Notes under the pieces: generated by a model | The model's database searches: none | What the model saw: only the letters and a program-made list of their open reading frames with translations | Told to the model about the DNA's origin: nothing | NCBI RefSeq assembly: GCF_021028975.2 | Contig: NC_059427.1 | Location: 8,437,170-8,496,000, forward strand | Origin: Sphaerodactylus townsendi | Lineage: Eukaryota | DNA: 58,831 bases | Direction of reading: 5' to 3' | In this document: piece after piece, positions 7,064 to 56,305 of the stretch | How positions within the stretch are numbered: the stretch's first letter is position 1 | How the letters are laid out: the number at the start of each line of letters is the position of its first letter | Program-made: the position numbers and the translations under genes

Positions 7064-7783
7064 ATGAAAATGGAGGACCAAGGTACCACAGTAGGGGGAT
7101 CACCAGTGGGGGTAGTACAACCCCCTCACGTCCTCCAAGCTGGCAGTATTGGGGTTTTCCTCCAAAGGATACCAGGGGAACAAGTTAAAGAGGAATCAGT
7201 TAAAGAGAAGGGTTCACTTCAGCAATGGGAAACCCAGTGGCAGGAGTTCCTTAGGACCATAGAGTCCCCTACTTCACATTGGACAATTCCACTATGGCCT
7301 AAAAAATCTTCACCCTGGGAAGATGCCAAGGCCTTTCTGGCCTCCTTTGAGCAAGTGGCCGAAGCCTGTTGGTGGCCCAGAGATGACTGGGTGATCCGAC
7401 TCCTGCCGGCCCTCAGCGGAGAAGCTGCAAAGGCCTTTAACAATCTCAGTGCCAAAGACAAAGAGGATTATGGGAAGGTGAAGACAGCCATCTTGCGAGG
7501 GGACGCCCTGAGCCAGGAGAAGCAGCGCCAACAGTTCAGGCGTTTCTGCTACCAAGAGACTGAGGGGCCGCGAGGGGCTTACAGCCGATTGCGGGAAATG
7601 TGTCGTGGGTGGTTGAGAGTGGAGAATCACAGCAAGGAGCAGATTCTGGAACTCTTGATCCTGGAGCAGCTGCTGAGCATTCTGCCCCCTGATATCCAGA
7701 GCCAGGTGAGGGAGAGAGGCCCCGAGAACTGTTCTCATGCAGTGGCCCTGGCCGAGGAGTTCCTCTTCAAGCAGGAGAAACAG
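7064..7783 (+). CDS. Gene B first coding exon: Gag-capsid-like N-terminal region + SCAN domain
   Basis: Acceptor TTCCAG at 6986, ATG 7064, SCAN motif [16 protein letters not shown]...[22 protein letters not shown], donor CAG|GTGAGG at 7784 (phase 0). Confidence 0.92.
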
Positions 7784-8571
7784 GTGAGGCCCTTCTGCAG
7801 TGGTCTTTGGGAGGAGCTGGAACTGAGAACTATGAAGAGGAACACTGTGGGTTGATTGTCCAATTTGTTTGGCTCTATCATGCCACTCATATAATGTTGA
7901 GTTTTCTGCATTATGCAACTCGTATGATGTTGAGTTTATCTCTCAGTCAAGGTGTTCGTAGACACTTTGGCTTGGATAGACCCCACCTGTCCCTACAACA
8001 GCACATCCTCAAATTGTGTTGCATTTGGCTAATATTTAAAATTTGTAGAACTTTGGAAGATTGGATATCCATTATCAGCTGAACAGTGATATATAACAGT
8101 GGGTAAAAACTTCCATAACAACAGACAATTAGATCACAGCCCTTATGACCTGGTCTTAGAACTTCCAGACGGCAGATAGGACCTGGAGATCTCCTGGAAT
8201 TCCAAATGATCTCTAGACTACAGAGATCTGTTCTACCTGGAGAAAATGGCAGCATTGGAGATTGGATTCTATGGCATTATTCCTGTTGATGCCCTCCCTC
8301 TGTTTTTCCCAGGCTCCAACCCCAAAACTTCAGGAATTTCCTAGTTTGGAATTGACAACCCTAGTTTACCTGATCTGTCAAATATCTCCTCCATGTGAGT
8401 CACCTGCTTCTGCATTAGGCTGATTACATGTTTTCTGTTTTACAATTCTGGGTCCCAAAATCCTGTATATTCTGATTTCTCCCTCCAAGGGTGGGGAGTA
8501 GAATCCTTCAGTCTGTATCTACTCCTCTTCTTCCAGATCTGCCCTAAAAGGGCCCCTCTCTTTCTTTGCAG

Positions 8572-8692
8572 GTGCCTTTGGAGGAGGCAGCTGGAAGTGT
8601 CTCCAAGGCAGGCTGGGCTTTGTCTGAGAGTGAGCAGAGGCAGCTTTCAGGGGATATCAAGGAAGAGCCGGATGGACAGGCAAACCTGATAG
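8572..8692 (+). CDS. Gene B exon 2: degenerate KRAB-A-like exon (VPLEEAAGSVSKAGWALSESEQRQLSGDIKEEPDGQANLI)
   Basis: TTGCAG acceptor, GTAAGG donor; 121 nt, phase 0-1, position and spacing match a KRAB-A exon. Confidence 0.8.
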
Positions 8693-9327
8693 GTAAGGAG
8701 GGATAGAGGCCTTCTGGGACCTGAAATCCAAGATGTTCAGAAGCTCCTTTCTGGGGCTAAGTTCAGCAACGGTTCTTTCCCTCCTTTCTGGGGGCCGCTT
8801 TGTCCTTAGATTCACCAGAATGTTGGGTATTCTGGGAGAAATGCCTGGAATGGAGAATTAAATGCAAGAACCCTCCCAGAGTTCACAAGAGCCCTGCTGG
8901 ATGAGACCTCAGGCCTAGCCAGACCCACATCCTCTTTCCTGAGCTGGCCAGCAAGATACATTCAAATCCCTTGAACCAGGCTAGAAGGTAATAGTCCTTC
9001 CGGCTTGTTTTTTTTAACCCACTTCCCCACACACTGTATCTGGCGTTTGATGTCATTCTGCTTTTGAATATGATGGAGCATCCATGAAGATACAATGGTC
9101 AATAGCCAAGAATAGAAGTTCTACAAATTCTCTCTCCTACCAAATGTGCCTCCCTGGTGTTTGTTTGTTTTTTAACTCAGGCACTAAGGAGGGATACATT
9201 TTACTCGGAGGCCCAAGCATCCAGGGGGACTGATTGGCCAAGTTGCAACGCCTTTACCATTACGAGGGGGAGATCATGCTTCAGAATGTTAATGTTTCCC
9301 TGTCTCTATGATCAGTACCTTCTAAGG

Positions 9328-9437
9328 CAGGGGTGGTCAACCTATGGCACTCCAGATGTTCATGGACTACAATTCCCATCAGTTGCAAATACAATGTAGT
9401 CCATGAACATCTGGAGCGCCATAAGTTGGCCACCCCG
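9328..9437. mobile_element. Palindromic hAT (Charlie-type) MITE
   Basis: CAGGGGTGG...CCACCCCG termini, long internal inverted repeat, perfect 8-bp TSD TTCTAAGG (9320-9327 / 9438-9445). Confidence 0.85.
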
Positions 9438-9651
9438 TTCTAAGGAGTTTTCAAACCTTGTGATATTTGCCACTGTGAGTAAGAGGCACGGTTAGATCAA
9501 AACAAGCAACATTTTGAACAGTGAGATCCTGATTTTGTTTTTATTTACAACATTTGTACACTTCCTCATTTTCAATATGTAGTCAAGTCTCTGGATTCCT
9601 ACAACCAGAGACTCGAGCCATGAACAGACAAGTCAGATTTTTCAACAGCAT

Positions 9652-9936
9652 GGAGCCAGTGTGGTGTAGTGGTTAAGAATGGTGAACTAATCTGGAGAAC
9701 TGCGTTTGATTCCCCACTCCTCCACATGAGTGGTGGACTCTTATCTAGTGAACTGGATTTGTTTCCCTGCTCCTACACATGAAGCCTGCTGGGGGACCAT
9801 GGGCTAGCCACAGTTATCTCAGAGCTCTGTCAACCCCTCTTATCTATTGTGGGGAGCAAAGGGAAAGAAGATTGAAAGCTGGTTTGAGACTCCTTATGGG
9901 GGAGAAAGATGGGGTATAAATCCAAACTCTTCTTCC
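9652..9936 (+). mobile_element. tRNA-derived squamate SINE
   Basis: GGAGCCAGTGTGGTGTAGTGGTTAAG A-box head, B-box-like GTTTGATTCCC, (TCT)n tail. Confidence 0.8.
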
Positions 9937-11170
9937 TGTACAAAGCGCGCCCCAGACAGCACCAAAATACACAAATGCAACACACACACACCCTCTCAGG
10001 AGGTGGGAGTGAGGGTCATTTATAGGATAGTAAAAGCTGTGCCTGTAGTTTTAAGAAACAAATGATATCAGTGGTGTTTCAAGATTTCAGGTATTCCTTT
10101 CTGTCAGTAAAAGGTAAGAGCAGAGAACAGTGGCCTTTCCAGAGCTCTGTTGGCTTTTGCGGGAGGAGTCCTCAGGGCTCTCTTGTGAAACAGATGAGGA
10201 TGGGAGAAAAAGAACAGGTTGGTGTGTTCTCCTGTTGTAACATGTATCAGGAATGGCTTACTGTCACTTTCTTGTTGGCTGTGAACAGAATTACCCAGTG
10301 AGGTAGGTGGGACTGTGAGAGTTCTGAGAGAACTGAATCAAACCCAGTTCTCCAAATTAGTTTCTGCCACTATTAACCACTATTTCATGCTGGTTGTCCT
10401 TGCTGGTAGAGGGGAAATGTAGGAAGGAGGCCTGAAGGGAGAGAGAGAGATGGTGGGGGCCAGTGCGAAGGAACAGGATTTTTTTCTCCAGCAATTTTTG
10501 CAGGTCCTCAACTTTCCTTTTAATAAAATCATTTGCATGATGTTCCCCAAAATCCTAAAGACAATACTGTATAAGACAAAATGGTATAAAGCAACTATTT
10601 AAAACTGCACAAAACCAACCATGAGAAACTTTGTACTTTTCTGGGGAAGATCATTGTGCCTCATTGGGGCTCTTATAGAAAATGTCAGGCTCTTGATCAA
10701 AACTGGCATCTTAAAGAACAATGGGAAATTATCTTGTATGCAGTGCAGACATTTCAGAACAGTTGGCGTGTTTTCTCACATAATCACAGTCATCTATGAT
10801 CCCAGCTTTAAAGCAGACAGAATGTGATTGTGCAGTTGAGGGGCAGAGAGGTTGGGCTTTTCTCTGTGACAATTTCCTGCTCAAGAACTGCCCGTCCCAG
10901 AATTCCTTGGGTCTAGGGCAGGAGAGAAGGCCATAGATCCCAAGGACAGCAGGGGCTGTTGGCGTGTTAAGAAAATAGAAATCCACCTGGAGAGAACAAA
11001 TGTAGAACTTGGCCTGGTGGGTAAAAAGGTGTAAGAACCCACATACTTGAGGCAGGAAACAGGTTCTGCCAAAGGACACAAAATACACACAGAACAGTTA
11101 AGAGGGACCAATCTGAACCTTGGCTTTTTGCAGGGATGGTAACTGGATCTCTCTGCCTTTGTTCAAGCAG

Positions 11171-12441
11171 GTGATGTACAGGAAAATGAAAATGATATGG
11201 AACTCCAGGCTTTATCATTGGACGAAGTTAAGAATGAAGATTTGAAAATAAACTTTGGACCAAAGAAGCATGATGGGAATTGCACAACTGAGTGGAATGA
11301 GAATCTCATTTCTTGTCAAGGAGGGGAATTCCAGGAAATCCCAATCCAAGAAGAAAAGGCAACACAGAATGGAAGGACCAAAGGTCTCACAGCTCACCTG
11401 AAAATCCACAAAGGGGAAAATCAAAAGGAAACTGTGGAGTTTGGGAAGAGCATTAGTCAGAACGTCAATCTTGTTGCACGTCAACAAATCTGTTCAACAG
11501 ATAAACCATATAATTGTTCACTGTGCGGAGAGAGCTTCAGTTGGAGGATAGCTCTTACTTGGCATCAAAGAATTCACAATGGGGACAACCCTCCCAAAAT
11601 TCCAGCATGTGAAAACAGCTATAGTGGGCTATCACATTATGAAGAGCATCAGATGATCCCCACAGGAGGGAAACCATCTCAGTGCTCAGAAGTTGAAAAG
11701 AGTTTCAGTGACCATGTAAGCTTAACTGCACAAGAAAGAGCAGGTGCAGTAGAGAGACCTTATGAATGCCCAGAGTGTGGAAAGAGGTTTCGTTGGGCAT
11801 CACACCTTCAGCAGCATCAGACACTTCACACAGGGGAGAAACCATATGAGTGCTCAGAGTGTGGGAAGAAGTTTACCCGGACATCAACCCTGCGACAGCA
11901 TCAAAGAATCCACACTGGAGAAAAACCTTATGAGTGCTCCGAGTGTGGACAGAAATTCAGTTTCAGTTCTCTCCTTCAACGGCATGAAAAGATCCACACT
12001 GGAGAGAAACCGTATCAATGTGCAGAATGTGGGAAGGCCTTCCGTCACTGCTTAAGCCTCACAGTGCATCAAAGAGCGCACACAGGGGAGAGACCTTACA
12101 CATGCTCAGAGTGTGGAAGTAGTTTTAGTCGCATAACACACCTGCAACAACATCAAAATATCCATACAGGAGAGAAACCTTATGAGTGCTTAGAGTGTGA
12201 GAAAAAATTCTGTTCCCCATTTCATCTTCAACAGCATCAAAGGATCCACACGGGGGAGAAACCTTATAAATGTTTAGAGTGTGGGAAAAGTTTCAGCCAC
12301 TGCATAAGCCTCACTGCGCATCAGACAACTCACACAGGGGAGAAACTTTTCCAGTGCTCTGAGTGTGGAAAGAAATTTAATTGGATATCATCTTTGAGAA
12401 AGCATCAAAGAGTCCACATGGAGGAAAAACCTGAGTGCTGA
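11171..12441 (+). CDS. Gene B terminal exon: spacer + C2H2 array (9 intact fingers, 2 degenerate)
   Basis: AAGCAG acceptor at 11170, phase 1, in frame with ORF 11197-12441; canonical fingers and TGEKPY linkers. Confidence 0.92.
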
Positions 12442-18565: not shown

Positions 18566-19288
18566 ATGGAAAAAGAGACTGCTAGAGGCCCCAAACTAGG
18601 GGAAGTGTCAGAGGCAAGAGGAATAGTCCCTCTAGTCCTTCAAGCTGGGAGTATCGGGGAAATTCTGCAAAGCAGAACAGGACATCCAGGGAATCAGCCC
18701 ACAGAGGAGGGATCCCTTTCTCTTGAGCAGTGGGAAGGCCAATGGAAGGAGCTTCTCAGGACACTGGAGAGCCTTCATTCTCCTTGGGGAATCCCTCACT
18801 TGCCTGAGAAACCTTCACACTGGGAAGACGCGAAAGCCTTTCTGGCCTCCTTTGAGCAAGTGGCTGAAGCCTGTCGGTGGCCCCAGGAAGAGTGGGTGAC
18901 CCGACTCCTCCCAGCCCTCAGTGGAGAAGCTGAATGGGCCTTTAACAGTCTTGCTGTCACAGAAAGAGAGGATTATGGGAAGGTGAAGTTGGCCATCTTG
19001 CGAAGGGACACCTTGAGCCAGGAAAAGCAACGTCAGCAGTTTCGGAATTTCTGCTACCAGGAGGCTGAGGGGCCAAGAGGGGCCTACAGCCGACTGCAGG
19101 AAATGTGCCGTGGGTGGCTGAGAGTGGAGAATCACAACAAGGAGCAGATCCTGGAGCTCTTGATCCTAGAGCAGCTGCTGAACGTCCTGCCTCCGCAGAT
19201 CCAGAGCCCGGTGAGGGAGAGTGGCCCTGAGAGCTGTTCCCAGGCAGTGGCCCTGGCCGAGGAGTTTCTCTTGAGGCAAGAGAAGCAG
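18566..19288 (+). CDS. Gene C first coding exon: capsid-like region + SCAN
   Basis: Acceptor CAACAG at 18480, ATG 18566, SCAN motifs, donor CAG|GTGAGG at 19289. Confidence 0.92.
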
Positions 19289-20337: not shown

Positions 20338-22620
20338 GGATCATAGAGTTGGAAGAGACCCCAAGGGCCACCAAGTCCAACTCCCTGCCATGCAGGAACA
20401 CATAATCAAAGCATTTCTGACAAATGGCCATCAATCCTCACTTTAGAAACCTGTAAAGAGGTTTGGAGACTCCACCACACTCCACCACACTCCAGCCCTT
20501 ACTGTCAGGAAGGTTTTCCCGATGTTTAGGTGGAATTTCTTTTCCTTCACCTTGAACCCATGACTCCTTGCCCTAGTCTCTGGAGCAGCAGAAAACAAGC
20601 TTGCTCCCTCACCAACATGACATCCCTTCAAATATCTAAACATGGCTATCATGTCACCTCTTAACCTTCTCTTCACCAAACTAAACATACCCAGCTCCCT
20701 AAGTCTCTCCTTGTTGGGCATGGATTCCAGACCTTTTACCATTCTGGTTGCCCTCCTCTGGACCCATTCTAGCTTGTCAATATCCTTCTTGAATTGCGGT
20801 GCCCAGAACTGTACACAGTATTCCAGGTGAGGTCTAACCAATGCAGAACAGAGAGGTATCCTCTGTATCTAGACACTATACTCCTATTGATACAGCCCAG
20901 ATCGCATTGGCTTTCTTGGCCGCCGCATCACACTGCAATTTGTGGTCTACTAAGACTCCCAGATCCCTTTCGCATGTAGTGTTGTCAAGCCAGGTGTCAC
21001 TCATCCTATATCTGTGCATTTTATTTTTTCTGCCTAAGTGTAGTATCTTACATAGATCTCAGTTGAAATTCATTTTGTTAATTTTGGCCCAGCTCTCTAA
21101 TATGTCCAGGTCATTTTGAATTCTGACTCTATCCTCTAGGGTATTAGCTACTAGATAAAAATATTGAATAGTACTGGGCCCAGGACAGAACCCTGTGGCA
21201 CCTCACTAGTCACATCTCTCCAGGATGAAGATGAGCCATTGATGAGCACCCTTTGAGTTCGGTCAGTCAACCAATTATAAATCCATCTAATAGTAGCATT
21301 ATCAAGTCCGCATTTCACTAGCTTACTATGGGGCATCTTGTCAAAAGCTTTACTAAAATCAAGGTATGCATTCCACAGCATTCCCTTTGTCTACAAAGCT
21401 TTTCACTCTATCAAAAAAAGAGATAAGATTAGTCTGGAATGACTTGTTTTTCAGAAACCCATGCTGATTGATCACAGTATTCCCTGCTAAGTGCTGTCAG
21501 ACCGTCTGTTTAATTATCTGCTCCAGAATCTTCCCTGGTATTGATGTCAGGCTGACTGGACGGTAATTATTAGAGTCCTCCTTTTCCCTCTTTTTGAAGG
21601 TAGGGATAATATTAGCCCTCCTCCAATCCACTGGGGCTTCTCCAGGAGTTCTCAAAGATTACAACAAATGGTTCTGAGATTACTTCTGCCAATTCTTTTA
21701 ATGCCCTGGGATGTAGTTCATTAGGGCCTGGAGGTTTGAATTTGTTTAAAGTACCCAGGTGTTCCTGCACTACCGCTTTACTTATTCTGTGTTGAATTTC
21801 TCCAACTCTATCTTCTGTTTCATTTTCCCCTGGATGAGCACTGTTTCCTTTTTGGGAAAAGACTCAACAAAGGTGTTGAGTAGTTTTGTCTTTTTTCCAT
21901 CCCCTGTTAGCATTTTGCCATCTTCTCCATGCAGTGACTCTATCCTATCTTTTTTCTTCCTTTGCTACGGACATAACAAAAAAAAGCCTTTTTTGTTTTT
22001 AGCCTCTCTGGCAAGCCTCAGCTCATTGTGAGCTTTAGCTTTTCTGACTTTCTCCCTACACATCCTACTTATTTGTTTGAATTCCTCTTTGGTGATTTCC
22101 CCCCTTTTCCATTTCTTGTACATGTCCTTTTCAAGTCTTAGTTCAATTGAAAGTTCTTTAGACAGCCATCCTGGTTTCCTGAGACATCTCCCATTTTTCC
22201 TCCTAACTGGAACTGTTTGAAATTGTGCCTTCAAGGTCTCACTTTTAAGAAACTCCCAGCCATCATGCACTCCCTTCTTTTTTAGTATTTTTGACCACGG
22301 GATCACACCCAGTTGATTCCTAAGCTTACTGAAATCTGCTTCTAGAATGTCTACAGTCTAGAAAGACTACACTTAGCATCCCTTTTCCACTGTATAACAA
22401 ACTCTAGGAGAAGATGATTACTCCCACCTAAGGATCCTGCCACTTCCACTCCACTAATCAGGTCATCGTTGTTGGTTAGGAGCAGATCTAAAATAGCCAT
22501 TCTCCTTGTTGCTTCTTCCACCTTCTAGACCATGAAACTGTCTGCAAGGCAAGTGAGAAATTTGTTTGACCTGGTTATCATGGGAGAGTTTGACTCCCAA
22601 CGAATATCAGGATAATTGAA
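20338..22620 (-). mobile_element. CR1 LINE, 5'-truncated (~2.3 kb), degenerate ORF2, inserted into a SINE
   Basis: Minus-strand peptides [38 protein letters not shown]; CR1 3' end at 20338; SINE halves at ~20193-20337 and ~22622-22730. Confidence 0.92.
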
Positions 22621-23061: not shown

Positions 23062-23167
23062 GTGCCCTTGGTGGAGGTAGCTGCAAGCCAGGCTTCATCT
23101 GAGAGCAAGCAGAGGCATCCCACGGTGGCTGTTGATGAACAGGAGCGTGGAGAAGCCATCCTGCTGG
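23062..23167 (+). CDS. Gene C exon 2: degenerate KRAB-A-like exon with an in-frame 15-nt deletion
   Basis: TTGCAG acceptor, GTAAGG donor; 106 nt, phase 0-1; VPLVEVAASQASSESKQRH...GEAILL. Confidence 0.75.
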
Positions 23168-23700
23168 GTAAGGAGGGAGGGAAGCCATCTGGAGCATGAG
23201 GTGGGGGATATTGGAAAGCTACTTCTAGGCTTCAGCTCAGTAGTGACTCCTTCTCCTTTCAAGGGCTGCTCTGTCCTTACATTCTGCAGAGGAGTAGATA
23301 TTCTAGAAAAAAAGAGCTGGTTACAAAAGGTGAGGTCTGCTGGACAAAGCCAAAGTCTGATTGACTTTTTCTTACAGTGGTCAGACCCACACCTGGATGA
23401 TCCAGGCTAGCCAGATTTTGGAAACTAATCAGGGCTGGCCCTGATTAGTTCTTGGATGGGAGGCTACTAAGGAAGTCCAAGGTTGGTACACAAAGGCAGG
23501 CAATGACAGACCACCTCTGAACGTCTCTTGCCTTGAAATCCTATGGGGTCATTGTAAACCAGCTGTGACTTGATAGCGTTTCCCACCATCACGACCATGT
23601 CTAGCTAGATGTTGTCAGGCCTTCCTGTTTTTTGCCCCCCTCCCTGACGTCTGGCATCCTTTCCAAAGGCTTGGTTGTTCCCTTGAACTAACTTGACACC

Positions 23701-24066: not shown

Positions 24067-24443
24067 TTTTGGTTGATCTGGTCCTGGCTGAAAACTAACT
24101 CCCCATGCCCCATGGCACACCTATCATAAAATTCTTGGAATTTTATGAGTAGAAAATCAAAAGAAGTTCACAGCAAATGAAATATAAAGAGTAGGAAAAT
24201 GAATCTTCTCTTGTTGCCTGAAATTGTACATACGGGGAGTTTTGGGTAAAGAATGCAAAGGAAGCAAATAAAAAAGGTCCTACGTAGGGCCAGGCCAGGT
24301 AAAAGGTGCAGCCAGCTGCCTACGTCAGGGATTAAAGTGATTTTGAGGAAGTAATCCAATATTATCCAGGATGCAGGAATAACAGATCTAAGACTTGGGG
24401 TTTTGAATGACTGATGATTGAATCTCACTCTTTATTCCAGTAG

Positions 24444-24860
24444 GAAGTATGGGCAAGAGGGCTGGAGAATTCCAGGAGCCATCATCCAAAGATGTTCAGA
24501 AGGAAGAATCTACAGGAAATGTCAAGAATCCAGAAGGAATCAAGAGGAAAGAGGAAAATATCAAGGTCGAGAGGGGAAATAAAACAATTGCTTGTCAAGA
24601 AGGGGACTTCCGTGAAATCCCAGGCCAAGAAGAAAGGCCAACCAAAAAAAGCAGAAATAAAGGCCTCTATGCTAACCAGACGATCCGTTCCAGCAGAAAT
24701 GAAAACAAAAGTGTGGCTTTTGGAAAAACCTTCATTCAGAAAGCGAATATTGTTTCCCAAAAACATATTTGTGCAGGAGAGAAGCCACATGATTGCCTGC
24801 AGTATGGAAAGAGTTTCTATCTTCTAACAACTCTTACTTCGCATCAAAGAAGTCACTCAG
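24444..24860 (+). CDS. Gene C exon 3: truncated terminal-type exon (spacer + one degenerate finger)
   Basis: CAGTAG acceptor; ends HQRSHS-G at TCAG|GTGAGA, phase 1-1; homologous to the 5' part of the gene B terminal exon. Confidence 0.75.
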
Positions 24861-24996
24861 GTGAGAATGATGTTCTCTGATGCTATAGACTTTAATGTAC
24901 ATTTAATGTACAGCAGAAAGGAGTCAATGCAACTTCAGGTGCAGATCAGACCTCTTTGCATGGGTGCTAATGGAATCTCTCTCTTTATTCCTGCAG

Positions 24997-25961
24997 GGGA
25001 TGTTCAGGAGAAAGAGGAAGATGAAGAACTGCATCAATTATTGCCACATAAAGCTAAGCCTGAGGAACCGAAAGAAAACTTCAGCAATCAAGATGAACCC
25101 AAGAGGCAGGAAGGAAACCACATGGCTGAGAAGAGGGATGAGCAGGGGATTTACGAGAAAGCAGGGGATTTCTGTGAAATAATTCACCCAGTGGAGGAAA
25201 CTTTCAAGTGCTTGGAGTGTGGAGTGAACTTTTCAGATCAAACTCAGTATAATATCCATTTGCAAATGCACAGTAGAATGAAGATCCATAAATGCTTGCA
25301 CTGTGAAAAAAGTTTCCTTTGCAGAGCAGACCTCCTTACACATCACCAGATCCACACAGAAGAGAAACCATATAGTTGCTCAGAATGTGACAAGAGCTTT
25401 TCACAGAGAACACACCTTATTCAGCACCAAAGAATTCATACAGGAGAGAAGCCATATAAATGCTCAGAGTGTGGAAAGAGCTTCAAGTGGAATGTCACTT
25501 TTCAGCAGCATCTAAGAACCCACGCAGGGGAGAAATCTTTTCAATGTTCAGAGTGTGGCAAGAGCTTCAAGTGGAATGTCTCTTTTCAGCGGCATCTAAG
25601 AACCCACGCAGGGGAGAAACCTTTCCAGTGCTCACAGTGTGGAAAGAAATTCAGTCAGAGTCGCTATCTTCAACAGCATCTTAGAACCCATGCAGGAGAG
25701 AAACCTTTTGAATGCTCTGAGTGTGGAATGAAGTTCAACTGGAATGGCAATCTTCAGCGACATCAAAGAACCCACACAGGGGAGAAACCTTTTGAATGCT
25801 CAGAGTGTGGAAAGAGGTTCATTCAAAAATCCTGCCTTCAACAACATCAAAGAATGCACATGAGGAAAAATCACATAGCTGCTCAGCCAATTGCAAGAGC
25901 TTCTTTCCTATTTCCCACTTTAAAGATAGCCACAGAGTCCACACAAGTTGAAACCATATAA
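24997..25961 (+). CDS. Gene C terminal exon: 8 C2H2 fingers
   Basis: CTGCAG acceptor at 24996, in frame; canonical fingers; stop at 25959-25961. Confidence 0.92.
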
Positions 25962-30430: not shown

Positions 30431-32243
30431 AATCTTTTCTCTGTTATGGTAAATGGGATTGCTTTGGAGCAGGAGGAGGTGCCTGAATAATACTTGGAGG
30501 TGGGGACCATGCTTGGAGGTGGGGTCAGAGCTGTTGTGTATCACATGGGTTGCAACCCAATTCCATTTTGTCTCCTGAATTTTGTCTTTCTCAGTCCTCC
30601 CTCTTGGTTGGGCAAATCAGGAGAGACACGGATGGAAAATCTGAGTCTAGAGAAAGGTCAGGAATCCCTTTCCTTCAAGGTGAGATCCTCAGAAAAAGAG
30701 GCCAGAAGTCTTTACTGAGTGAAGTGGGCATAGTCTCTTTTGAGGAATTACATATGACTGTCGTTTATTAGGAAGGGTGTTCATATCCTGGAAATTCTGC
30801 AGTCACTACATTTGCTATTGATTAATTTCCGGTCTGCAGGCCTTCCTCTGCCATCATCCTCTGGCCTGACAGCTGTGCCCATTCAAGCGTGGCCTTTTGA
30901 AACCCCCCCTACCCAACTTGTGAAATTGGTGGTGGCCTGTGCACAGCATTCTCTTCAGTGGCCCCAGGGGGTGGAGCATCCTGCCTGCCCCTGCCAGCCA
31001 GTGTATCTCAACCCAAATATCATTTCTTAGACTGTGAAAGGAAGACATTTTCTGGAGGCCGGAGACTTTCACAAAGGTGGGAAATTCTCAGGCAACTGTA
31101 GCCCATTTGGCAGGGTGTGCATATTTCAGAGGTTCTGCAATTATTATTGTTGTTGTTGTTGTTGTTGTTATTTATATTTATAAACCGCCCTCCCCCGGAG
31201 GGCTCAGGGTGGTGAACAAACAAATAGATAGAGCACAGATAAAATCAATAATATCGATATTTAAATAAATCATTAAATAATGGCTCTATATATATTAAAA
31301 CCAACCCCATTAAAAATGCAATCACTGCATATCCTTTTGATTAATTTCCAGCCTTGGACACAAAAATCTTCCGGCCTGCCTCTCCCATCAGGCTCTGCTG
31401 GGGCAGCTGTGTCCATCTGAGAGCGCCATGTTGAAGGGGCCACCCTTCAGGTGAGTAAGATGGCTGGCTGGCTGCCAGATAGGGTATTACCTGTGGTGAT
31501 CCCAGAGCAGGGAGCAGCCTGCCTGCCAGTCTCCCACCCAAATGGTTTTCCCCAGACTGCAGAAGGAGGAATTTTTCAGGAGGAGGTTTTCATAAAGAAG
31601 GAATATTGTTGTCCTTTTCATGTTAGGTGATAGATTTTAAAATCTGTTCTTTGTAAATTTGTAATCTGCCCTGAGCATTATCAGCAAAACAGGACTTGAA
31701 CAAAATAGGTCAGCAGAGCAAACCTGGTGGTCAGGGTAAGGCAGCTTCAAGGGTCTCTATCTTGGATGGCGTTTGCTGATACGACAATTCTACATCAATT
31801 CCAATAAATGAAATCAATGTATAGGTAAGGTCAGCTGGTAGAGCCCTTTGGGGATGAGGCGGCCTATAAAATCAAATAAATAAATAAATAAATAAATAAA
31901 GTTCTGAGGGCAGCCATGAAAAGAAATCCTGAATGTTTTAAGTAGCATCTTATTATGCTTAAAAGTAATGAAGATTTACATATGAATTGTGCATATGAGA
32001 AGAAAATCATGTTGGGACCATTATGCCAGATGCTGAGTGTGTCTGTTCTTTCTGCTTCCTACTTCTCCAGGAAGAAGCCCAGTCTGGAAGACAACAGCAG
32101 CTTCTAGATGTTTAAATTTTGTAGCGCTATTCCTGAGGAATCTTTCTGAGGTGAAAATGGAGAAATAAGACTCCACAGGCCTGAAATCGGAGGAGGTTCC
32201 AGAGGGGAGAGGAAAATCCCTTCATGTCCTTCAGGCTGGAAAT

Positions 32244-32879
32244 ATGAAGCAATTCCTGAAAAGGAGACAGGGAGATTTGATGCATCGGCACACAGGGAAG
32301 GGTTCCCTTTCCCTTGCTCAGTGGGAAGCGCAGTGGCAGGAGTTCCTTAGGACAGTGGAAAACCCTCATTTTGGATGGGGAATCCCACACATGCCAAAAA
32401 AGCAGTCCCCGTGGGAGGATGCCAAGGCCTTTCTGGCCTCCTTTGAACAAGTGGCCGAAGCCTGTCAGTGGCCAAAGGAAGAGTGGGTGACGCAACTCCT
32501 GCCAGCCCTCAGTGGAGAGGCCGAAAAAGACTTTAATAGTCTGGATGTCCAAGACAGAGAGGATTATGGGAGGGTGAAGGCAGCCATCTTGCGAGGAGAT
32601 GCCCTGAGTCGGGAAAAGCATCGTGAAGAGTTCAGGCGTTTCTGCTACCAGGTGGCAGAGGGGCCAAGAGGAGCCTACAGCCGACTGCGGGAAATGTGCC
32701 ACGGGTGGCTGAGAGTTGAGAATCACAGCAAGGAGCAGATCCTGGAAATCTTGATCCTGGAGCAGCTTCTGAGTATCCTGCCCATGGAGATCCAGAGCCA
32801 GGTGAGGGAGAGTGGCCCTGAAAATTGCTCCCAGGCGGTGGCCCTGGCTGAAGAGATCCTCTTGAAACAGGAGAAGCAG
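32244..32879 (+). CDS. Gene D first coding exon: capsid-like region + SCAN (ancestral ATG 32157 is followed by an in-frame TAA)
   Basis: Acceptor CTCCAG at 32070; SCAN motifs; donor CAG|GTGAGG at 32880. Confidence 0.85.
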
Positions 32880-33822: not shown

Positions 33823-33943
33823 GCATCCTTGGAGACTGGGGCCAGGAGTGTCTCTGAGGCAGGCCAGGTTCCCTCTGAGAACGACTGGAGGCATCTCCCA
33901 ATGGAAATCAAGGAAGAAGAGCATGGAGAGGCTGGCCGACTGG
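33823..33943 (+). CDS. Gene D exon 2: degenerate KRAB-A-like exon
   Basis: TTGCAG acceptor, GTAAGG donor; 121 nt; ASLETGARSVSEAGQVPSENDWRHLPMEIKEEEHGEAGRL. Confidence 0.78.
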
Positions 33944-33955
33944 GTAAGGAGAGAT

Positions 33956-34595: not shown

Positions 34596-35166
34596 GGAGG
34601 GTTGGAGGCCTTCTCAAGCCTGAGATTGGGGAGTCTGGAAGCTCCTTGTGGGGCTAAACTCAGCAGAGGCTACTTTGAGGGCTGGTCTGTCCTTACGTTC
34701 TCCAGGGTATTCTAGGAAAAGTGCTGGTAACTTAAGAACAGCCCAGGTGGACAAGACAAAATGTCCGCTGATTCTTTCCTAGAGTCGTTGGGTTGACAAT
34801 GTTCTAGCTTCTTTCCTATTTATCAGAGGCTAAAAACCTGCAATCCCAAAACTCTGCAGTCCCAGGACAGGATTTTATGTTAAGGGATTTTTAAAAAACT
34901 ACACTATCATAGAAAATCAAAAGATGTGTACAGCAGGTCAAATATGAACTGTGGAGTAATGAATCTTTACCACCTTTCCCCTTTAAAGTACATATGGAGA
35001 GTTGTGGGAGAGAAGGGAAAATCAAACTGGGACAGGAAAGAAGGTGGACAAATGAGAAAGGGCTTGAGGAAGGAATCAAAGTACAAGCCAGGAGGCAGGA
35101 GTGACAAATGTGACACTTGGGGTTTTTTGCGTGCTTCTAACTGGATCTCTGTCTTTATTCCAGCAG

Positions 35167-35583
35167 GAAGTGTAGGTGAGTTGGCCAGGGAATTAGAGGG
35201 GTCACCACTGGTGAAACCCAAGGAGGAAGAGTATGAAAGTAACTTCAGGGATCCTAATGGAATTAAGAAGAAGGACGGAAATGGCAGATTTGAGAGGAGG
35301 GATGAATCCATTCCTTTCCAAGGAGGAGGCTTCCATGAAGTCCCAGTCCAAGAAGAAAAGTCAACCAAAAAGGGAAGGGACAAAGGCCTCCATGATAATC
35401 AAAGAATCCGCTACAGGGAAAAAGAAAATGAAAGCAGGTCCTTTGGAAATACCTTTGGTCAGAGCACAAATATGATTTCCCTGAAACAAATTCCCTCAGG
35501 AGAGAAACCATATAGTTTCCTGGAGTGTGGAAACAATTTTGGCCACAGAACAGCCCTTACTCTGCATCAAAGAATTCATTCAG
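35167..35583 (+). CDS. Gene D exon 3: truncated terminal-type exon
   Basis: CAGCAG acceptor; ends HQRIHS-G at TCAG|GTAAGA; phase 1-1. Confidence 0.78.
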
Positions 35584-35761
35584 GTAAGAAGGCAAACTAA
35601 ATATTCAAGGGTTTAATGATCTCCTCAGATATAGCAGGCTTTAATGTCCATTTGAAGTAGACCAGGAAGAAGTGACTGTAATATGTTGAATGTGGATGGA
35701 AATTCAAAAGCAGAACAGAAGTCATTTAGTGGGTGCTAATGGGATCTCTTTATTCCCATAG

Positions 35762-36426
35762 GGGATGATCAGGAGGATGACGAAGATGAGCAACTGCACC
35801 AATTATCCCCAGATAAAGCCAAGCCTGAAGGTTTGAAAAAAACCTTCAGGAATCAAGATGAACCAAAGAGGCAGAAAGAAAGCCACATTGTCGAGAAGAG
35901 AGCTGAGCAAAGGATTTCTGCGAATGCTGGGGGTTGCAGTGAAATAATACATATAGTGGAGGAAACATACAAATGCTTGGAGTGCGGGATGAACTTTTCA
36001 GATCAAACCCAGTATAATATTCATTTACGAGTGCACAGTGGAAAGAAAATCCATAAATGCTTGGAATGTGGAAAATGCTTTCTTTGCAGAGCAGAACTCC
36101 TTAGACATAACCGAATCCACACAGGAGAGAAGCCATTTGGCTGCTCAGAATGTGGCAAGAGTTTCTCACAGAGAACAAACCTTATTCAGCATCAAAGAAT
36201 TCATTCGGGAGAGAAGCCATACAAATGCTCAGAGTGTGGAAAGAGGTTCAGTCGGTGTAGTGATGTTCAGCGGCACCAAAGAGTCCATACAGGGGAGAAA
36301 CCTTTTCAGTGCTCAGAGTGTGGGAAAAGATTCATTCAGAAATCCAGCCTTCAACAGCATCAAAGAATCCACATGGAGAGAAGCAACAGTAGCTTCTTAA
36401 CCTGTGACAAGAGTTGTACATCTTAA
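35762..36426 (+). CDS. Gene D terminal exon: 5 C2H2 fingers
   Basis: CCATAG acceptor at 35761, in frame with ORF 35833-36426. Confidence 0.9.
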
Positions 36427-41799: not shown

Positions 41800-41800
<1 letters not shown>

Positions 41801-41853: not shown

Positions 41854-41854
<1 letters not shown>

Positions 41855-41899
41855 TTGGATTTATACCCCACTTCTCTCTCGCATAAGGAGGCTTACATG

Positions 41900-42316
41900 C
41901 TTGCTCCATCTTCAATATGACATCCCTTCAAATGTCTAAACATGGCTATTATGTCACCCCTTAACCTTCTCTTCTCCAGACTAAACATACCTAGCTCCCT
42001 AAGCTGCTCCTCCTAGGGCATGGAATCCAAACCTTTTACCATTTTGTTTGCCTTCCTCTAGTCCCGTTCCAGCTTGTCAATATCCTTCTTGAATTGTGGC
42101 ACCCAGAACTGGACATAGTGTTGTAGGTGAGGCCTGAGCAGTGCAGAATAGAGAGGTACTATTATGTCCCTTGATCTAGACACTACTAATGATGAAGCCT
42201 AGGATTGCATTGACTTTCTTGGCTGCCACCTCACACTGCTGACTCATGTTCAGTTTGTGATCTAAGACTCCCAGATCCTTTTCACATGTACTGTTGTCAA
42301 GCCAGGTGTCACCCAT
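41900..42316 (-). mobile_element. CR1 LINE fragment
   Basis: Closely similar to 20600-21005. Confidence 0.85.
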
Positions 42317-48685: not shown

Positions 48686-48904
48686 TAACTAAACATCAAA
48701 TCATGCCAATACTTTTTATATATAAATTTACCTGGTTAGAAAAGTCTTGTGGGGCCATAAAGCAGCAAATGGGGAATCAAATGTGTCTCTTCTCTCTCTT
48801 TCCCACATTCTTCTTTTATCCAAGAAAAGGTTAACATAGAATCATAGAGTTCTAGAGTTTTCAGTTCGGCAGCACCAACTCTGCGTGATTGTTCTGAGCA
48901 AGCA

Positions 48905-49618
48905 ATGGAGAAAAAGACTACAGGCCCCAAATTAGGGGAAGTATCACAGGAAAGAGGAACCATCCCTCATGTCCAGGCTGGGAGTATTGGGGAAATCCTG
49001 CAAATGAGAATGGGATTTCCAATGAATCAGCCCTCAAAGGAGGGATCCCTTTCCCTCAAGCAGTGGGACGTTCGGTGGCAGGAATTCCTCAGGACGGTGG
49101 AGTCCTCTCCCTCTCCATGGGGAATCCGACATTTATCGGAGAAAACTTCCCCCTGGGCGAATGCCAAGGCCTTCCTGACCTCCTTTGAACAAGTGGCCGA
49201 AGCCTGTCAGTGGCCCCAGGAAGAATGGGTGACCCGACTCCTGCCAGCCCTCAGTGGAGAAACTGCACAAGCCTTTAACAGGCTGGATGTCCAGGACAGA
49301 GAGAATTATGGGAAAGTGAAAGCAGCCATCTTGAGAGGGGATTCCCTGAGCCGGGAGAAACAGCGTCAGCAGTTCAGAGGTTTCTGCTACCAGGAGGCTG
49401 AGGGACCGCGGGGGGCTTACATTCGGCTTCGGGAAATGTGCCACGAGTGGCTGAGAGTGGAAAATCACAGCAAGGAGCAGATCGTGGAGGTCTTGATCCT
49501 AGAGCAGCTGCTGAGCATCCTTTCCCCAGAGATCCAGAGCCAAGTGAGAGAGAGTGGCCCTGAGAGCTGCTGCCAGGCGGTGGATCTGGCTGAGGAGTTC
49601 CTCTTGAGGCAGAAGCAG
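48905..49618 (+). CDS. Gene E first coding exon: capsid-like region + SCAN
   Basis: ATG 48905, SCAN motifs, donor CAG|GTAAGG at 49619. Confidence 0.92.
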
Positions 49619-50099: not shown

Positions 50100-50232
50100 G
50101 TGCCCTTGGAAGAGGAGACTGGAAGTGTCTCTGAGGAAGGTGTAGCTCCATCTGAGAGTGAGCAGAGGCATGCCTTAATGGGCATCAAAGAAGAAGAAGA
50201 AGAAGAAGAAGAAAGAGAGGCTGGCCTGCTGG
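50100..50232 (+). CDS. Gene E exon 2: degenerate KRAB-A-like exon with a (GAA)8 poly-Glu expansion
   Basis: TTGCAG acceptor, GTAAGG donor; 133 nt, phase 0-1. Confidence 0.8.
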
Positions 50233-51356
50233 GTAAGGACGGAGGCCTTCTGAGACCTGAAATTGGGGAGTCTCTGATGTTCCTTCTGAGGCTGAGCTCA
50301 GCAGTGGTTCCTTCTCCCCTTTCAGGGGCTGCTTCCCTGTCCTTCAGTTTTCTGGTGGACTTGATATTTTCAGGAAGGGGGCTGGTAACATAAGAGGAGT
50401 TTCATCAACTCTTCCCTACAGGAGGCCTCTAGTTGCCTTTGGGCCTTCCCAGTTCTTTTTCCCCTCCAGAAACCAGTCCCCATTGGCCTCTTTGGTTGGT
50501 TGACAAGGCTCTCCCCCCCCCACACACACACACACTTTTTCAGAGTCTGAGAACCAATTGGCCCATGTTGGCTCTATCACAAAACTTTCTGGATTTTACA
50601 GCACTTTTTGTACTTAACCATCAATCACAGAAAATCGAAGGGGGAGGGGCTGTGGCTGAGTGGCAGAGCATCTACTCGTCATGCAAAAGGTCTCAGGTTC
50701 AATCTCCAGAATCTCTAGTTAAAGTATGAAGTGGCAGATGATATGAAGGATCTCAGCCTGAGGCCCTTTAGAACTGCTGCCAGTTTCAGTAGACAATACT
50801 GACCCTTGATGGATTGAGGGTCTGATTCAGTATAAAGCAGATTTATATTTTCCCTGGACTTTGGCTGAAGACATGTTTTCCCCTTTGGTAATTTCAAGAT
50901 TTTTAAACAGGCTGTACGAATTTCAATAGGTTTTATGAATCTTAAGCATATTTTATTGTTACAGGTTACAATTGTTTTCAGGTTGTATCAGTTTTTATGA
51001 GTCTTATAATGAAACCTGCCCTGAGACCTTTGGGTATAGGGCAAGATAAAAATATTTATAAATAAATATGTGTTCAAATGTACATCAAAACAAATATGAA
51101 GTGACACAGATCAAAACTTTAGTCCTGTTTTTCCTTGAAGTGGGAGTCTGGGGAGAGGGAGGGAAAGGTGGAAGAGAAAACCAGCTCCATTGCCAGACCT
51201 GGCTGGCTGCTTATTCTGGTGTTGAAGGCAGCCCTAAGGTGTTGAAGGCACCCCTAAGGGATGAATCAAAATATATGCCAACAGTCAGGAGTGACAGATT
51301 TGAGACTTGGGTTTTTTGCGTGACTGCTGACTGGATGTCTCTTTTTATTGCAGCAG

Positions 51357-51770
51357 GAATTGTAGGGGAAATAGCTGGGGAATTACAAGGAGCATCACCA
51401 AAAAACACTAAAGAGGAAGACTTTGAAGTAAACTTTCGGGATTCAGATGGAAACAGGAGGAAGAAGGGAATCAACACAGATGAAAAGAGTGATAAGCCCA
51501 TTTGTTGCCAGGGGGAAGGCTTCCATGAAATCCTCATCCAAGAAGAAAGGCCACCTAAAAACAGAAGGAACAAAGGCCTCTGTTTTCACCAGACAGTCCA
51601 TTGCAGCAAGAAGCAAAATGAAAGGATAGCTTTTGGAAAGACCTTTATTCAAAAAATGAGTGTTTGCCAGGAACAAATTCATTCGAGAGCAAAACAATAT
51701 AATTGCTCAGAGTGTGAAATGAGCTTCAGTCATCGAACAGCCCTGACTTCGCATCAAAGAATTCACTCAG
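51357..51770 (+). CDS. Gene E exon 3: truncated terminal-type exon with one intact finger
   Basis: CAGCAG acceptor; YNCSECEMSFSHRTALTSHQRIHS-G, donor TCAG|GTAAGG. Confidence 0.8.
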
Positions 51771-51953
51771 GTAAGGAGCTGTATAAAATTTTCTTTGATT
51801 CAGCTTTAATGAACATTTGAAGTGTCAATTAATGGATGCTGCAGTGTACCCCAGGAAGGATTCACTGCCCTATGCTCTGGCTGGAAAAACCTTCAAGAGC
51901 AGGTCAGACTTCCTTGTGTGATGCTAATAGGATATCTCTCTTTATTCCCACAG

Positions 51954-52978
51954 GGGCTGATCAGGAGAATGTGGATGAAGAGGAACTGCCTGGGTTACTG
52001 TCGGGCAAAGCCAAGAATCCGGAGGTGAAAGGAAACTTTAGGAATCTAGACGGAGCAAAGGGACATGAAAGAAGCCACCTGGTTGAAAAGAAGAGTCAAC
52101 CCACTCCTTGCCAAGGAGGGGATATCTATGAAGTAATTCACGTGGCGGAAGAGGTGTACAAATGCTTGGAGTGCGGAATGGGCTTCTCAGATCAAACCCA
52201 ATATAATATCCATTTGCAAAAGCATAGTGAAAAGAACATCCCTAAATGTTTGGGGTCTGGAAAGAGTTTACTAGGCAGATCAGAACTTTTTAAACATCAA
52301 AGAGTCCACACAGCAGGGAAAGCGTATACCTGCTCATCGTGTGGCAAGAACTTTTCACAGAAAGCAAGCCTTATTCATCACCAAAGAATTCATTCAGAAG
52401 AGAAGCCATTTATTGGCTCAGGGAGTGGAAAGAGTTTATCTGATAGAAAAAAGGGCAATGTATATTTTACAAAGCTTAATCGAACAAAAACATATAAATG
52501 CTTTCAGTGTGGAAAGTACTTCAGATACAAATCTCAGCTCCTTGTGCACCAAAGAGTCCACACAGGGGAAAAACCTTTTGAATGTTTGGAGTGTGGAAAG
52601 AAATTTAGTCAGAGTGGCAATCTTCAACAGCATCAAAGAACCCACACAGTAGAGAAACCTTTTGAATGCTCAGAGTGTGGAAAGAAATTCAGTATGAGTT
52701 TGCATCTTGACCAGCATCTAAGAACTCACACAGGAGAGAAACGTTTTGAATGCTCAGTGTGTGGAAAGAAATTTAGTAGATGTATGCATCTTGAACAGCA
52801 TTTAAGAACCCATACAGGGGAGAAACCTTTCGAGTGCTCTGAGTGTGGAAAGCAATTCAGTTGGAGTAGCAATCTTCAGCGGCATCAAAGAATCCACACA
52901 GGGGAGAAACCTTTTGAATGCTCAGCATGTGGAAAGAAATTCAGTCAGAGTTGCCATCTTCAACAGCATCTAAGAACC
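51954..52978 (+). CDS. Gene E terminal exon: at least 7 intact fingers + 2 degenerate; an 8th finger is cut by the assembly gap
   Basis: CCACAG acceptor at 51953; array runs into the N gap 52979-53066, so the true stop is unknown. Confidence 0.88.
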
Positions 52979-54149
52979 NNNNNNNNNNNNNNNNNNNNNN
53001 NNNNNNNNNNNNNNNNNNNNNNNNNNNNNNNNNNNNNNNNNNNNNNNNNNNNNNNNNNNNNNNNNNAGATAAAAGTAGTACATAATAAACTTAAACTATT
53101 TAAAATATGACGGCGGTCTATTTTTAGTACTGCTCTAGGGCCAAACTAGGCACAAAAAACGCCTGTGCTATCCTTGCCACATGTCAGCAGGACTGCTTGT
53201 CTTTCTAAGAAAGATTGAGTAGCCCTTAGCCCTGCAGCATTGCAAATGTCTGTCAGGGTCTATTTTAGAAATGTAGCATGCCTGTGTGAAAGAGTGGATG
53301 ATTTGCCTTCTCCAAGTGGTAGTTTGGGAGGACAGTTTTTGAGGGAAAATGACTGAACTCACACGCTCACCTCTGCCATTGCTAGTCTGATCCATTTTGC
53401 AAGTTGCTTTTCACTTTTTAAAAAGTTGGGAGGCTGATCCATGCCTTGCTATGTACAGTCTATCTTGATGACAGTTATTAGTTGCAATACCTAATACTTC
53501 CCTTTTACATAGGCATGCTTATCTGGATGATGTTCACCTTATTTTGTAAAGTTGATTAGTTTTTCAGCCCGCAAATATTTGTAAAATATACGATGTGGCC
53601 CTTGAATTGAATAGNNNNNNNNNNNNNNNNNNNNNNNNNNNNNNNNNNNNNNNNNNNNNNNNNNNNNNNNNNNNNNNNNNNNNNNNNNNNNNNNNNNNNN
53701 NNNNNNNNNNNNNNNNNNNNNNNNNNNNNNNNNNNNNNNNNNNNNNNNNNNNNNNNNNNNNNNNNNNNNNNNNNNNNNNNNNNNNNNNNNNNNNNNNNNN
53801 NNNNNNNNNNNNNAGAATCTGAGTTCGAATTTCCTCTTTTGCAGTGGAAATGGAAGATGAAGATTTTGGAGTAGAAGACTGAGTGGAGGGATAAGCTAAA
53901 GGAAATGGTATGGAAAGGTGAATAGAGGCAATGACATACAAAGGAGCCAGAGAACTCCTCAGATTCCCCCCCCCCCCCCCAATTCCATCACAACCGACTG
54001 CCAGGATTGTCTCCTTCCAGATCTGAAATAGTGGCTGGTTTTTGTTGTTGTTGTTCAGAGCATGGAAGGTGTTTTGCTACCCAGTTGCGTGCGTGGAGTG
54101 TGTGGCTGACACCTTCACCCTAAACATGGAGGGAGACCGTCTCCCTTCA

Positions 54150-54397
54150 CTGCCCTCCCGCAAGCGCCGCTGAGGTTGGTCCTGTCTTTTCCGGTGGGAC
54201 AACTTCCCTCGCCCCACGGTCTGCAAAAGTGATGCCGGTTTAGCTTGCAAGGGGTTAATGCGACAGAGTTTGCTTCCCAGAGGGGGCGGGGGGGGGGGGA
54301 ATGAAATGAACGGTGGGGACGTTTTTCTATGGGGAGGGGTCGAGTGGGCTTTGCAGGAAGAGGAAAGGAGGGCGACAGCTTGGATCAGGAGGTGAGG
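54150..54397 (+). promoter_or_regulatory. CpG-rich putative promoter / exon 1 of gene F (candidate donor GTGAGG at 54392)
   Basis: AAGGGGTTAA...AGTTTGCTTCCCAGAG module, GC boxes, local CpG enrichment. Confidence 0.45.
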
Positions 54398-55563
54398 GGC
54401 GGGGACGGGGCATGTGGGGGGCGAGAAATGGGGAGGGAGTCCTCTTGGCCCCCGAGTTTATCCTCCCTCCCCGTTAAAGCAAGGAGGGGAAAAATATGTT
54501 TGCACGTGTCTGCATCCCCACCACACACTCTTGAGAAGAAAGAAGGTCCCAGGTTCAAATCTCTGCCATCGCAGTTGGGAAAGATCCTTGGCTCCATCCT
54601 CAGAGGAAGCAGTATGAGGTGGTGCTGGAGTTCGCAGGGGGCGGGATGAGGCTGTACCACCTCAAATGTTGCAAGGGGCGAGGGCTGACGTGTTCTTCCT
54701 CCCCCACACGAAAAGTGTTGCAAATAAACAAGCAAAGAGCAAGGGCTTGGAAATTCTTGAAGATCTGGGGATGGAATTTGGAGTGGACAGGGACCCCAGT
54801 GGAGTATGATGTCATAGAGCCCACCCTCCAAAGCATTTGTTTTCTCCAGGGGAACTTGATTGTAGTAATACGCTGGTTAATAATCTCTGTAATGAGTGTG
54901 GAATCAGAGGTTCGCCTACAATGGTTAAGTGGTAGTAGGGGTTAAATCCAATTCACAAAGTTAGAGTCTGCCACTCAAGGGAGGAGTGGAAAATCAAACT
55001 TGGCTCTGCAATACAAGGGGAAGGCAGGAAGATGGCATGCCATGGATAAAAGCTTTTTGAATTAGTGACATTTTTGCTTTGGACTCAAGTTTACTTTGGG
55101 CCCAAGTCACCCAACCCACCATTTTTGCCTTCAACATGAAATAAGTCTGCCAAGCATATGTTGACAACTGATGGTGCAATGTGCCATAAAGTTGCAGCCA
55201 ACTTAGTGACAACTTAATAGGGTTTTCAAGGCAAGAGACAAATAGAGGTGTTTTGCCATTCCTCTGCATAGTGACCCCGGTATTCCTTGCAGATCTCCCA
55301 TCCAATCCTTCTGAGATCTGACAAGATTAGGCTTGCCTGGGCATGACAGCAATCCCAATTTTATCTTTCAAAGGTAAATTGTGTATTTACAAAAGGAGAG
55401 TTAAAATATTGATTTAAAAGGTATGATTTCCACATATTTAGCATATGTCCAGAAGCTGAACACTTACTTGTTTTCACGCTTATTCTGTTTTCTCCAGGTG
55501 GAAGCTCATGCACATCTCTTCAGGTCACTGCACCTGAAAGGATTTCTATAACATCCACCAAGG

Positions 55564-56305
55564 ATGAAGATGGAAGAGCAAGATCCCTTAAGTTGCACAT
55601 TAGACAGAGCCGAGGGGACAGGAAAAATCCCTCTCGACTTCCAGGCCGGGAGCGTCAGAGAATTCCTGCAAAGGAGACCACAAGCAGTTAAACAGGAATC
55701 TGATGAGGGTTCCCTTCAGCAGTGGGAAACCCAGTGGCAGGAGTTCCTGAAGACAGTGGAGTCTCCTCCTAGAGGCTGGGGAACCCCAGAGCTGCCAGAG
55801 GACCACAGGACATGGGAGGACACAAAGGCCTTCCTGGCCTCCTTTGAACAAGTAGCCAAAGGCTGCCGTTGGCCCAAGGAAGAGTGGGTGGCCCGACTCC
55901 TGCCAGCCCTGAATGGAGAAACGGAGCAGGTGTTTAGCAGTTTGGATCTCAGAGATAGGAGTGACTATAGGAAAGTGAAGGGAGCCATCTTGCGAGGGGA
56001 TGCTTTGAGGCGGGAAAGGCAGCCAGCCAGTACTTCCGGGACGCTTTCTGCTATCAAGAGGTTGACGGGTCGAGAGGGACATGTTGTCGCCTTCAGGAAC
56101 TTTGCCTCATGAGTGGCTGAGAGTGGAGAGACACTCCAAGGAGCAGATCCTGGAGCTGCTGATCCTGGAGCAGTTCCTGGCCATCCTGCCCCCAGAGATC
56201 CAGACCTGGGTGAGGGAATGCGGCCCCGAAAGCTGCTCTCAGGCAGTAGCCCTGGCAGAAGGCTTTCTGTTGAAGCAACAAGAGGCCCGAAGACATGAAG
56301 AACAG
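55564..56305 (+). CDS. Gene F first coding exon: capsid-like region + SCAN, with apparent frameshifts at ~56020-56110
   Basis: Acceptor CTCCAG at 55497, ATG 55564, SCAN split over three frames, donor CAG|GTGAGG at 56306; either a pseudogene or sequence error. Confidence 0.75.

Follow-up and report, generated by a model that had tools for sequence, protein, structure and literature searches.

Six tandem genes and the block ahead of SCAN

The DNA analyzed here is a stretch of 58,831 nucleotides of the Sphaerodactylus townsendi genome (contig NC_059427.1, positions 8,437,170 to 8,496,000), which we call the window. Six tandem zinc-finger genes, named A to F, are located on its plus strand. In each gene, a first exon encoding a leader, a conserved block and a SCAN domain is followed by a short exon 2, and the C2H2 fingers are encoded in one or two further exons. 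In all five of the first exons of B, C, D, E and F, the block lies directly before SCAN, as a sequence-only reading of the window had claimed. The core of this block is predicted, with high confidence, to be the N-terminal lobe (N-lobe) of a retrotransposon capsid.

Pfam SCAN (PF02023) matched B, C, D, E and the 3′ frame of F with E values of 1e-35 to 7e-27. A GT splice donor was found in exon 1 only behind SCAN, after which the annotated proteins enter the KRAB remnant and the fingers. The exons close at these donors, and the protease, integrase and reverse transcriptase (RT) continuation of Gag found in an active Gmr1-like element is absent. The first exons of B, D and E were 100% identical to the annotated S. 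townsendi zinc-finger proteins P0021, P0047 and P0286, which place the block and a C2H2 array in the same protein, with about 400 to 540 residues behind SCAN. The claim that five paralogs are fused to zinc fingers was borne out for these three genes; for C the fusion is read from position, and for F only from a Heteronotia protein with 79% identity, no finger array of F being seen within the window. The finger contact residues were not the same between paralogs.

The block consists of two units, a QWExQWQEFL (QWE) helix and a 66-residue core, separated by a variable 16-residue linker modelled with low confidence. Averaged over the 10 paralog pairs, amino acid identity was highest in SCAN (0.79), the core (0.73) and the QWE helix (0.72) and fell to 0.45 in the linker and 0.40 in the leader. 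The block had been described as being as conserved as SCAN while the flanks diverge, and this held on the whole, with the core slightly below SCAN. The proposed analysis of nonsynonymous to synonymous substitution (dN/dS; Nei-Gojobori method, codon bootstrap) gave 0.28 for the core (95% interval, 0.17-0.42), 0.16 for SCAN (0.10-0.24) and 0.66 for the leader (0.42-0.98). Both capsid lobes are under purifying selection. The QWE helix (7217-7264 and its equivalents) had a dN/dS of 0.15 with a wide interval, also indicating purifying selection, though the helix was found only in squamates. Among 128 relatives, the top-residue frequency was 0.81 in the core and 0.75 in SCAN, the core figure being inflated because the relatives were collected via the block.

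Predicted capsid fold, known relatives and range

The AlphaFold2 model of B residues 49-240 was built from 132 sequences with a predicted local distance difference test score (pLDDT) of 87.7. The model contains the QWE helix (pLDDT about 72), the linker, four helices and SCAN, and the fourth N-lobe helix continues unbroken into SCAN helix 1 (H88-111), possibly as an artefact of modelling a monomer. The model was then searched against 48,161 chains. Its two-lobe part (model residues 31-192) aligned with the capsids of Arc, RSV, MLV, HERV-K, Copia, dArc1 and PNMA2. The alignment with rat Arc had a Z score of 9.1 over 149 residues and a root mean square deviation (rmsd) of 8.6, which is high because the lobes stand at a different angle. 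None of the listed structure matches covered model residues before 29, which places the QWE helix outside the aligned capsid fold.

The core alone was modelled as a four-helix capsid lobe (pLDDT 90.4). Its best VIA match was rat Arc residues 213-280 (Z 8.8, rmsd 2.4 A, 68 residues aligned), and capsid folds occupied 36 of the first 37 VIA rows, including the Ty3 capsid (CA) N-terminal domain (Z 5.8) and the N-lobes of dArc1 and PNMA2. The Foldseek search of the core, a check suggested by the sequence-only reading, returned Arc in all of the first nine rows (TM score, 0.62-0.71). In the predicted fold, SCAN as the C-lobe stands directly behind the four-helix N-lobe, as in a two-lobe CA.

A tuatara relative was also compared with clusters of the ESM Atlas, with predicted models on both sides. 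Its structure aligned over 150 to 160 of 163 residues (TM 0.68-0.73) to chordate SCAN clusters with retroelement domains. The partner domains in these clusters, namely zinc knuckle and protease (zf-CCHC/RVP), integrase and RNase H (RT_RNaseH), correspond to a Gmr1-like make-up. Only 102 to 118 residues of the tuatara relative aligned to four zinc-finger-protein clusters.

Several points weigh against the N-lobe assignment. The Foldseek E values for the N-lobe (0.73-2.3) were not significant, and VIA cautions that Z scores below about 13 may reflect a common helical-bundle arrangement. The capsid lobes share one fold, CA having been described as a double-SCAN fold by Dodonova et al. (PMC6525542; the literature is cited throughout from excerpts), and many of the structure matches were C-lobes; therefore, the N-lobe call depends on the best matches and on position. 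No Gmr1-like Gag sequence was found for direct alignment, and the 43 matches of a turtle query were all reptile host proteins by name.

Viral contigs contained no Gmr1 Gag, and the Gag-directed profile search was dominated by finger columns and was uninformative. The block had no Pfam match of its own, and searches against Pfam and solved structures found nothing meaningful; a TnpB match (E 0.12) was rejected as chance. The leads for the block from an Atlas feature search all stayed below 0.9 (a SCAN cluster at 0.85 and DUF7041 at 0.77).

Judged from the models, the core is very probably a capsid N-lobe, and the genes would therefore carry a near-complete capsid, in agreement with the earlier proposal. 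That proposal had equated the whole upstream block with the N-lobe. It stands for the 66-residue core and fails for the QWE helix: all 5 squamate proteins scored had this helix, and none of the 8 from other reptiles did.

Extended SCANs in lizards, to which the sequence-only reading had referred, are on record. According to Kaneko-Ishino and Ishino (PMC3406341), Emerson and Thomas coined the extended SCAN (ESCAN) in Anolis in 2011, with an origin in the full-length CA of a Gmr1-like element that was joined to fingers and/or KRAB. The gecko genes have a SCAN, an extension akin to Gmr1-like Gag at the level of predicted structure, and a C2H2 array, and an Anolis carolinensis protein is 65% identical over the block. 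The gecko genes are further ESCAN members. Another review (Wolf et al., PMC4592553) ascribes to Emerson and Thomas 2011 the speculation that zinc-finger proteins are directed to capsids by SCAN, for which it states that experimental evidence is lacking, and reports a prediction that lizard SCAN proteins would bind Gmr1-like elements. Neither the full-length-CA origin nor the capsid-targeting idea is new. In the excerpted accounts of ESCAN in the reviews, we found no structure model, no squamate-only QWE helix and no KRAB remnant. In the excerpts available, a survey of domesticated capsids (PMC10516033) left SCAN out, PMC8321522 and bioRxiv 2026.02.07.704552 held nothing further on the N-terminal extension, and bioRxiv 2025.03.03.638093 described the capture as that of the C-terminal domain only. 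In the literature covered, we found no test of assembly or restriction by a reptile SCAN protein, most subscription journals being outside that coverage.

The mammalian SCAN proteins (ZNF24, ZNF174, MZF1/ZNF42, ZSCAN10 and PEG3) have the same order of SCAN, optional KRAB and fingers and also form tandem clusters. The gecko SCAN matched five solved mammalian SCANs with E values of 1e-24 to 1e-17; however, the solved structures match B only from residue 151 on. The Gmr1-like Ty3/gypsy Gag shares the two-lobe capsid, aligned over nearly the full length in predicted models, while the gecko genes have no zinc knuckle, protease, integrase or RT, and the donor after SCAN leads to host KRAB and finger exons. 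The domesticated capsids Arc, dArc, PNMA2 and PEG10 share the fold of both lobes, the Arc N-lobe being the best structural match. The gecko proteins differ from them in sequence (only 3-17% identity), in their retrotransposon source and in their long DNA-binding tail. Arc, PNMA2 and PEG10 form closed particles, whereas the gecko proteins are known here from sequence and models.

The block search gave 494 matches among 651 candidates. Among the 120 block matches listed, 119 had squamate names and 1 had a turtle name, while the turtle query matched 6 turtles, 1 alligator, 1 tuatara and 35 squamates. At E 1e-30 the profile search found 148 representatives; at E 0.001 the number was 2,236, of which the best 150 were listed. 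The core occurs in squamates, tuatara, turtles and alligator, and the implied distance from N-lobe to SCAN was constant in 310 of 311 copies. In the one mammalian protein tested, none of the three SCANs had the N-lobe. The reptile distribution fits the capture of a whole capsid whose N-lobe was later lost in mammals. In other squamates, the extended SCAN was joined to PF13837, PF04500/PF10551 or PF03221/PF04218 instead of or beside C2H2 fingers (P0052, P0068, P0085, P0095, P0271, P0002 and P0003).

Exon 2, the start of gene D and the frame break of gene F

Exon 2 was aligned with a profile of nine intact KRABs and gave an hhalign probability of 94.8. The KRAB score of B exon 2 was 12.9 bits; scores above 10 bits were found in 16 of 312 real post-SCAN segments and in 0 of 1560 shuffled ones. 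As a caveat, the 9 copies behind the profile came from no more than 6 proteins, and Pfam called no KRAB, either in B as a whole or in the second exons of B, D and E. From these scores, exon 2 of B to F is a decayed KRAB-A box, a remnant and not the intact KRAB-A box of TRIM28-recruiting KRAB zinc-finger proteins. The ancestral SCAN-KRAB-finger order is still discernible through these remnants. The positions of all features are given in Table 1.

Table 1. Features of the six genes in the window (C2H2 fingers counted by pattern; N-lobes are predicted)
Feature	Position	Strand	Remark
A, 3′ zinc-finger exon, 9 C2H2 fingers	839..2020	+	5′ exon outside window
B, coding exon 1: leader, QWE helix, linker, N-lobe, SCAN	7064..7783	+	100% to P0021 (XP_048345035.1, S. 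townsendi ZNF436-like)
B, QWExQWQEFL helix, residues 52-67	7217..7264	+	squamate-specific; outside aligned capsid fold
B, capsid N-lobe, residues 84-149	7313..7510	+	predicted four-helix CA fold
B, SCAN domain (capsid C-lobe)	7514..7780	+	Pfam PF02023, E 1.3e-35
B, exon 2, decayed KRAB-A box	8572..8694	+	no Pfam KRAB match
B, exon 3, linker and 9 C2H2 fingers	11170..12438	+	
C, coding exon 1	18566..19288	+	N-lobe ~18818-19015; SCAN ~19019-19285
C, exon-2-like segment, KRAB remnant	23080..23175	+	
C, 3′ reading frames, linker and 8 C2H2 fingers	24422..25958	+	
D, coding exon 1	32157..32879	+	P0047; first ATG 32157, annotated start 32244; N-lobe ~32409-32606; SCAN ~32613-32876
D, exon 2, KRAB remnant	33826..33945	+	
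D, two 3′ exons, 5 C2H2 fingers	35166..36423	+	
E, coding exon 1	48905..49618	+	100% to P0286; N-lobe ~49151-49348; SCAN ~49352-49618
E, exon 2, KRAB remnant	50100..50237	+	
E, 3′ reading frames, 8 C2H2 fingers	51062..52978	+	up to N gap 52979-53066
F, coding exon 1	55564..56305	+	N-lobe ~55810-56007; SCAN with frame break ~56020-56110
F, exon-2-like segment	56883..56942	+	
F, start of 3′ exon	58002..58142	+	likeness to Heteronotia relative

Gene D has an in-frame TAA at codon 4 (32166-32168). The annotated protein begins at the next Met and retains the whole block.

In gene F, the window has the block in one frame and SCAN in another, and the break between them is a cluster of small indels and substitutions. 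The break was spanned by one contig in each of the runs X3, X4 and X5, which come from two studies and carry two organism labels. These contigs depart from the window in a nearly identical way, their net length difference equals the frame offset, and the window version was found in none of them. A fourth run, X1, had no contig at 56038-56078. The Heteronotia relative of F is intact. Because the contigs of the three runs agree against the window, the frame break is likely an assembly error, and the idea that F is a pseudogene was rejected.

The X4 contigs at F begin at the acceptor AG (55496-55497) and end at the donor 56306, with no depth behind it. These limits resemble spliced RNA, a weak hint from one study and from a run that is not on record as RNA.

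At the DYGK/V site of the five genes (7477, 18982, 32573, 49315 and 55974), GTGAAG or GTGAAA is used as a donor in several submitter gene models, which yields proteins with the N-lobe only. The five such proteins checked that end at DYGK were all submitter gene models from two gecko assemblies, and they were rejected as real isoforms; for F, no joint at this site was listed in the run contigs. The N-lobe-only gene models are probably prediction artefacts.

A duplicated 3′ exon is common to C, D and E (24343-25569, 35064-36334 and 51257-52434), in which a short exon with one degenerate finger precedes the main array; B is without it. The reading frames 20446-20868 (minus strand), 21968-22357 (minus strand) and 41895-42316 resemble what we take to be fragments of CR1-type long interspersed nuclear elements. 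Pfam gave no informative match for these three frames. One of the two minus-strand frames is repeated at 41895-42316.

Possible roles of the two-lobe module

We favor, with modest confidence, the reading that the gecko genes encode nuclear DNA-binding proteins in which the two capsid lobes would serve together as a module for forming dimers or small oligomers and not as the shell of a particle. The reading is drawn by analogy from mammalian SCAN proteins. Mammalian SCAN domains form domain-swapped homo- and heterodimers in which helix 1 is critical for partner choice (PMC3458555). According to bioRxiv 2025.03.03.638093, transposon sequences are bound by SCAN zinc-finger proteins, which anchor nucleosomes in a TRIM28-independent manner and have expanded in squamates.

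By this analogy, the gecko SCAN would pair proteins by a domain swap in which helix 1 is exchanged and determines the choice of partner, the fingers would read transposon-derived DNA, and silencing may be independent of TRIM28. The N-lobe, fixed on helix 1, could provide a second surface for choosing partners, for linking dimers or for docking a conserved cofactor, the last possibility being likened to the docking of peptides by the Arc N-lobe. The gecko genes fit the mammalian scheme in having a constant pairing module, a dead KRAB and finger contacts that differ between paralogs. Two points weigh against a dimer or small-oligomer module. All of the proposed function is carried over from mammalian proteins that have no N-lobe, and two lobes at fixed spacing would also be expected of a capsid-forming or decoy protein.

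On the other hand, the N-lobe may be kept merely to support the folding of SCAN helix 1 and may lack a partner of its own. The predicted continuous helix from the N-lobe into SCAN and the report that SCAN monomers are unfolded (PMC3458555) are consistent with such a support, as are the core dN/dS above that of SCAN, the mammalian SCAN proteins that work without the N-lobe, and the decay or absence of the N-lobe in 4 of 156 SCAN copies, counted in proteins selected for having it. However, 31 of the 66 N-lobe columns were at least 90% conserved in the 128 relatives chosen by the block, with polar residues (E, Q, K and D) among them, and the N-lobe has been retained from squamates to tuatara, turtles and alligator. 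We consider folding support a minor possibility.

The lobes could also act as a capsid decoy, entering the Gag lattices of active Gmr1-like elements as a minority subunit and either poisoning them or bringing the fingers to the cDNA. Both lobes are retained at fixed spacing, full-length Gmr1 elements were reported in squamates, tuatara, turtles and crocodiles (PMC3670739), and the fold is common to the endogenised Ty1 capsid restriction factor Drt2. The idea was also anticipated in the speculation and the binding prediction related in PMC4592553. Yet Gmr1-like elements were reported to be depleted in reptile genomes, with the strongest expansion of SCAN zinc-finger genes in squamates (bioRxiv 2025.03.03.638093), and the N-lobe is conserved between paralogs and species, where a protein that follows changing Gags might be expected to diversify. 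Together with the lack of experimental evidence stated in PMC4592553, these points make a decoy unlikely; a decoy or ring, taken as one reading, is rather unlikely.

Closed capsid-like particles of their own, as formed by Arc, PNMA2 and PEG10, agree with the match of both lobes to Arc/PNMA2-type folds but are very unlikely because 400 to 540 residues follow SCAN, a tail amounting to 3-5 times the lumen of a T=1 shell and 1.3-1.8 times that of a T=4 shell (assumed inner radii). The tails would fill about 0.5-0.8 of the published 5e4 nm3 T=9 Ty3 shell, so that only a very large shell has room; the T=9 radii assumed in the volume estimate are smaller than the published Ty3 value. In addition, capsids are described as having a conserved flexible linker between the lobes, Ty3 having one, while the B model has the continuous helix noted above, which may come from modelling a monomer, and mammalian SCAN domains make swapped dimers.

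The present outcome confirms the 2011 description of ESCAN and adds a structure model to it. The N-lobe has no Pfam model and is easily missed, and the genes are therefore annotated as ordinary ZSCANs. If a decoy or ring were true, these genes would represent an innate defence in which a single protein both mimics a capsid and recognizes sequence, and this would be the ancestral job of SCAN. Since the N-lobe has been retained across reptiles, the reptile proteins are natural material for the old idea that SCAN first engaged retrotransposon capsids.

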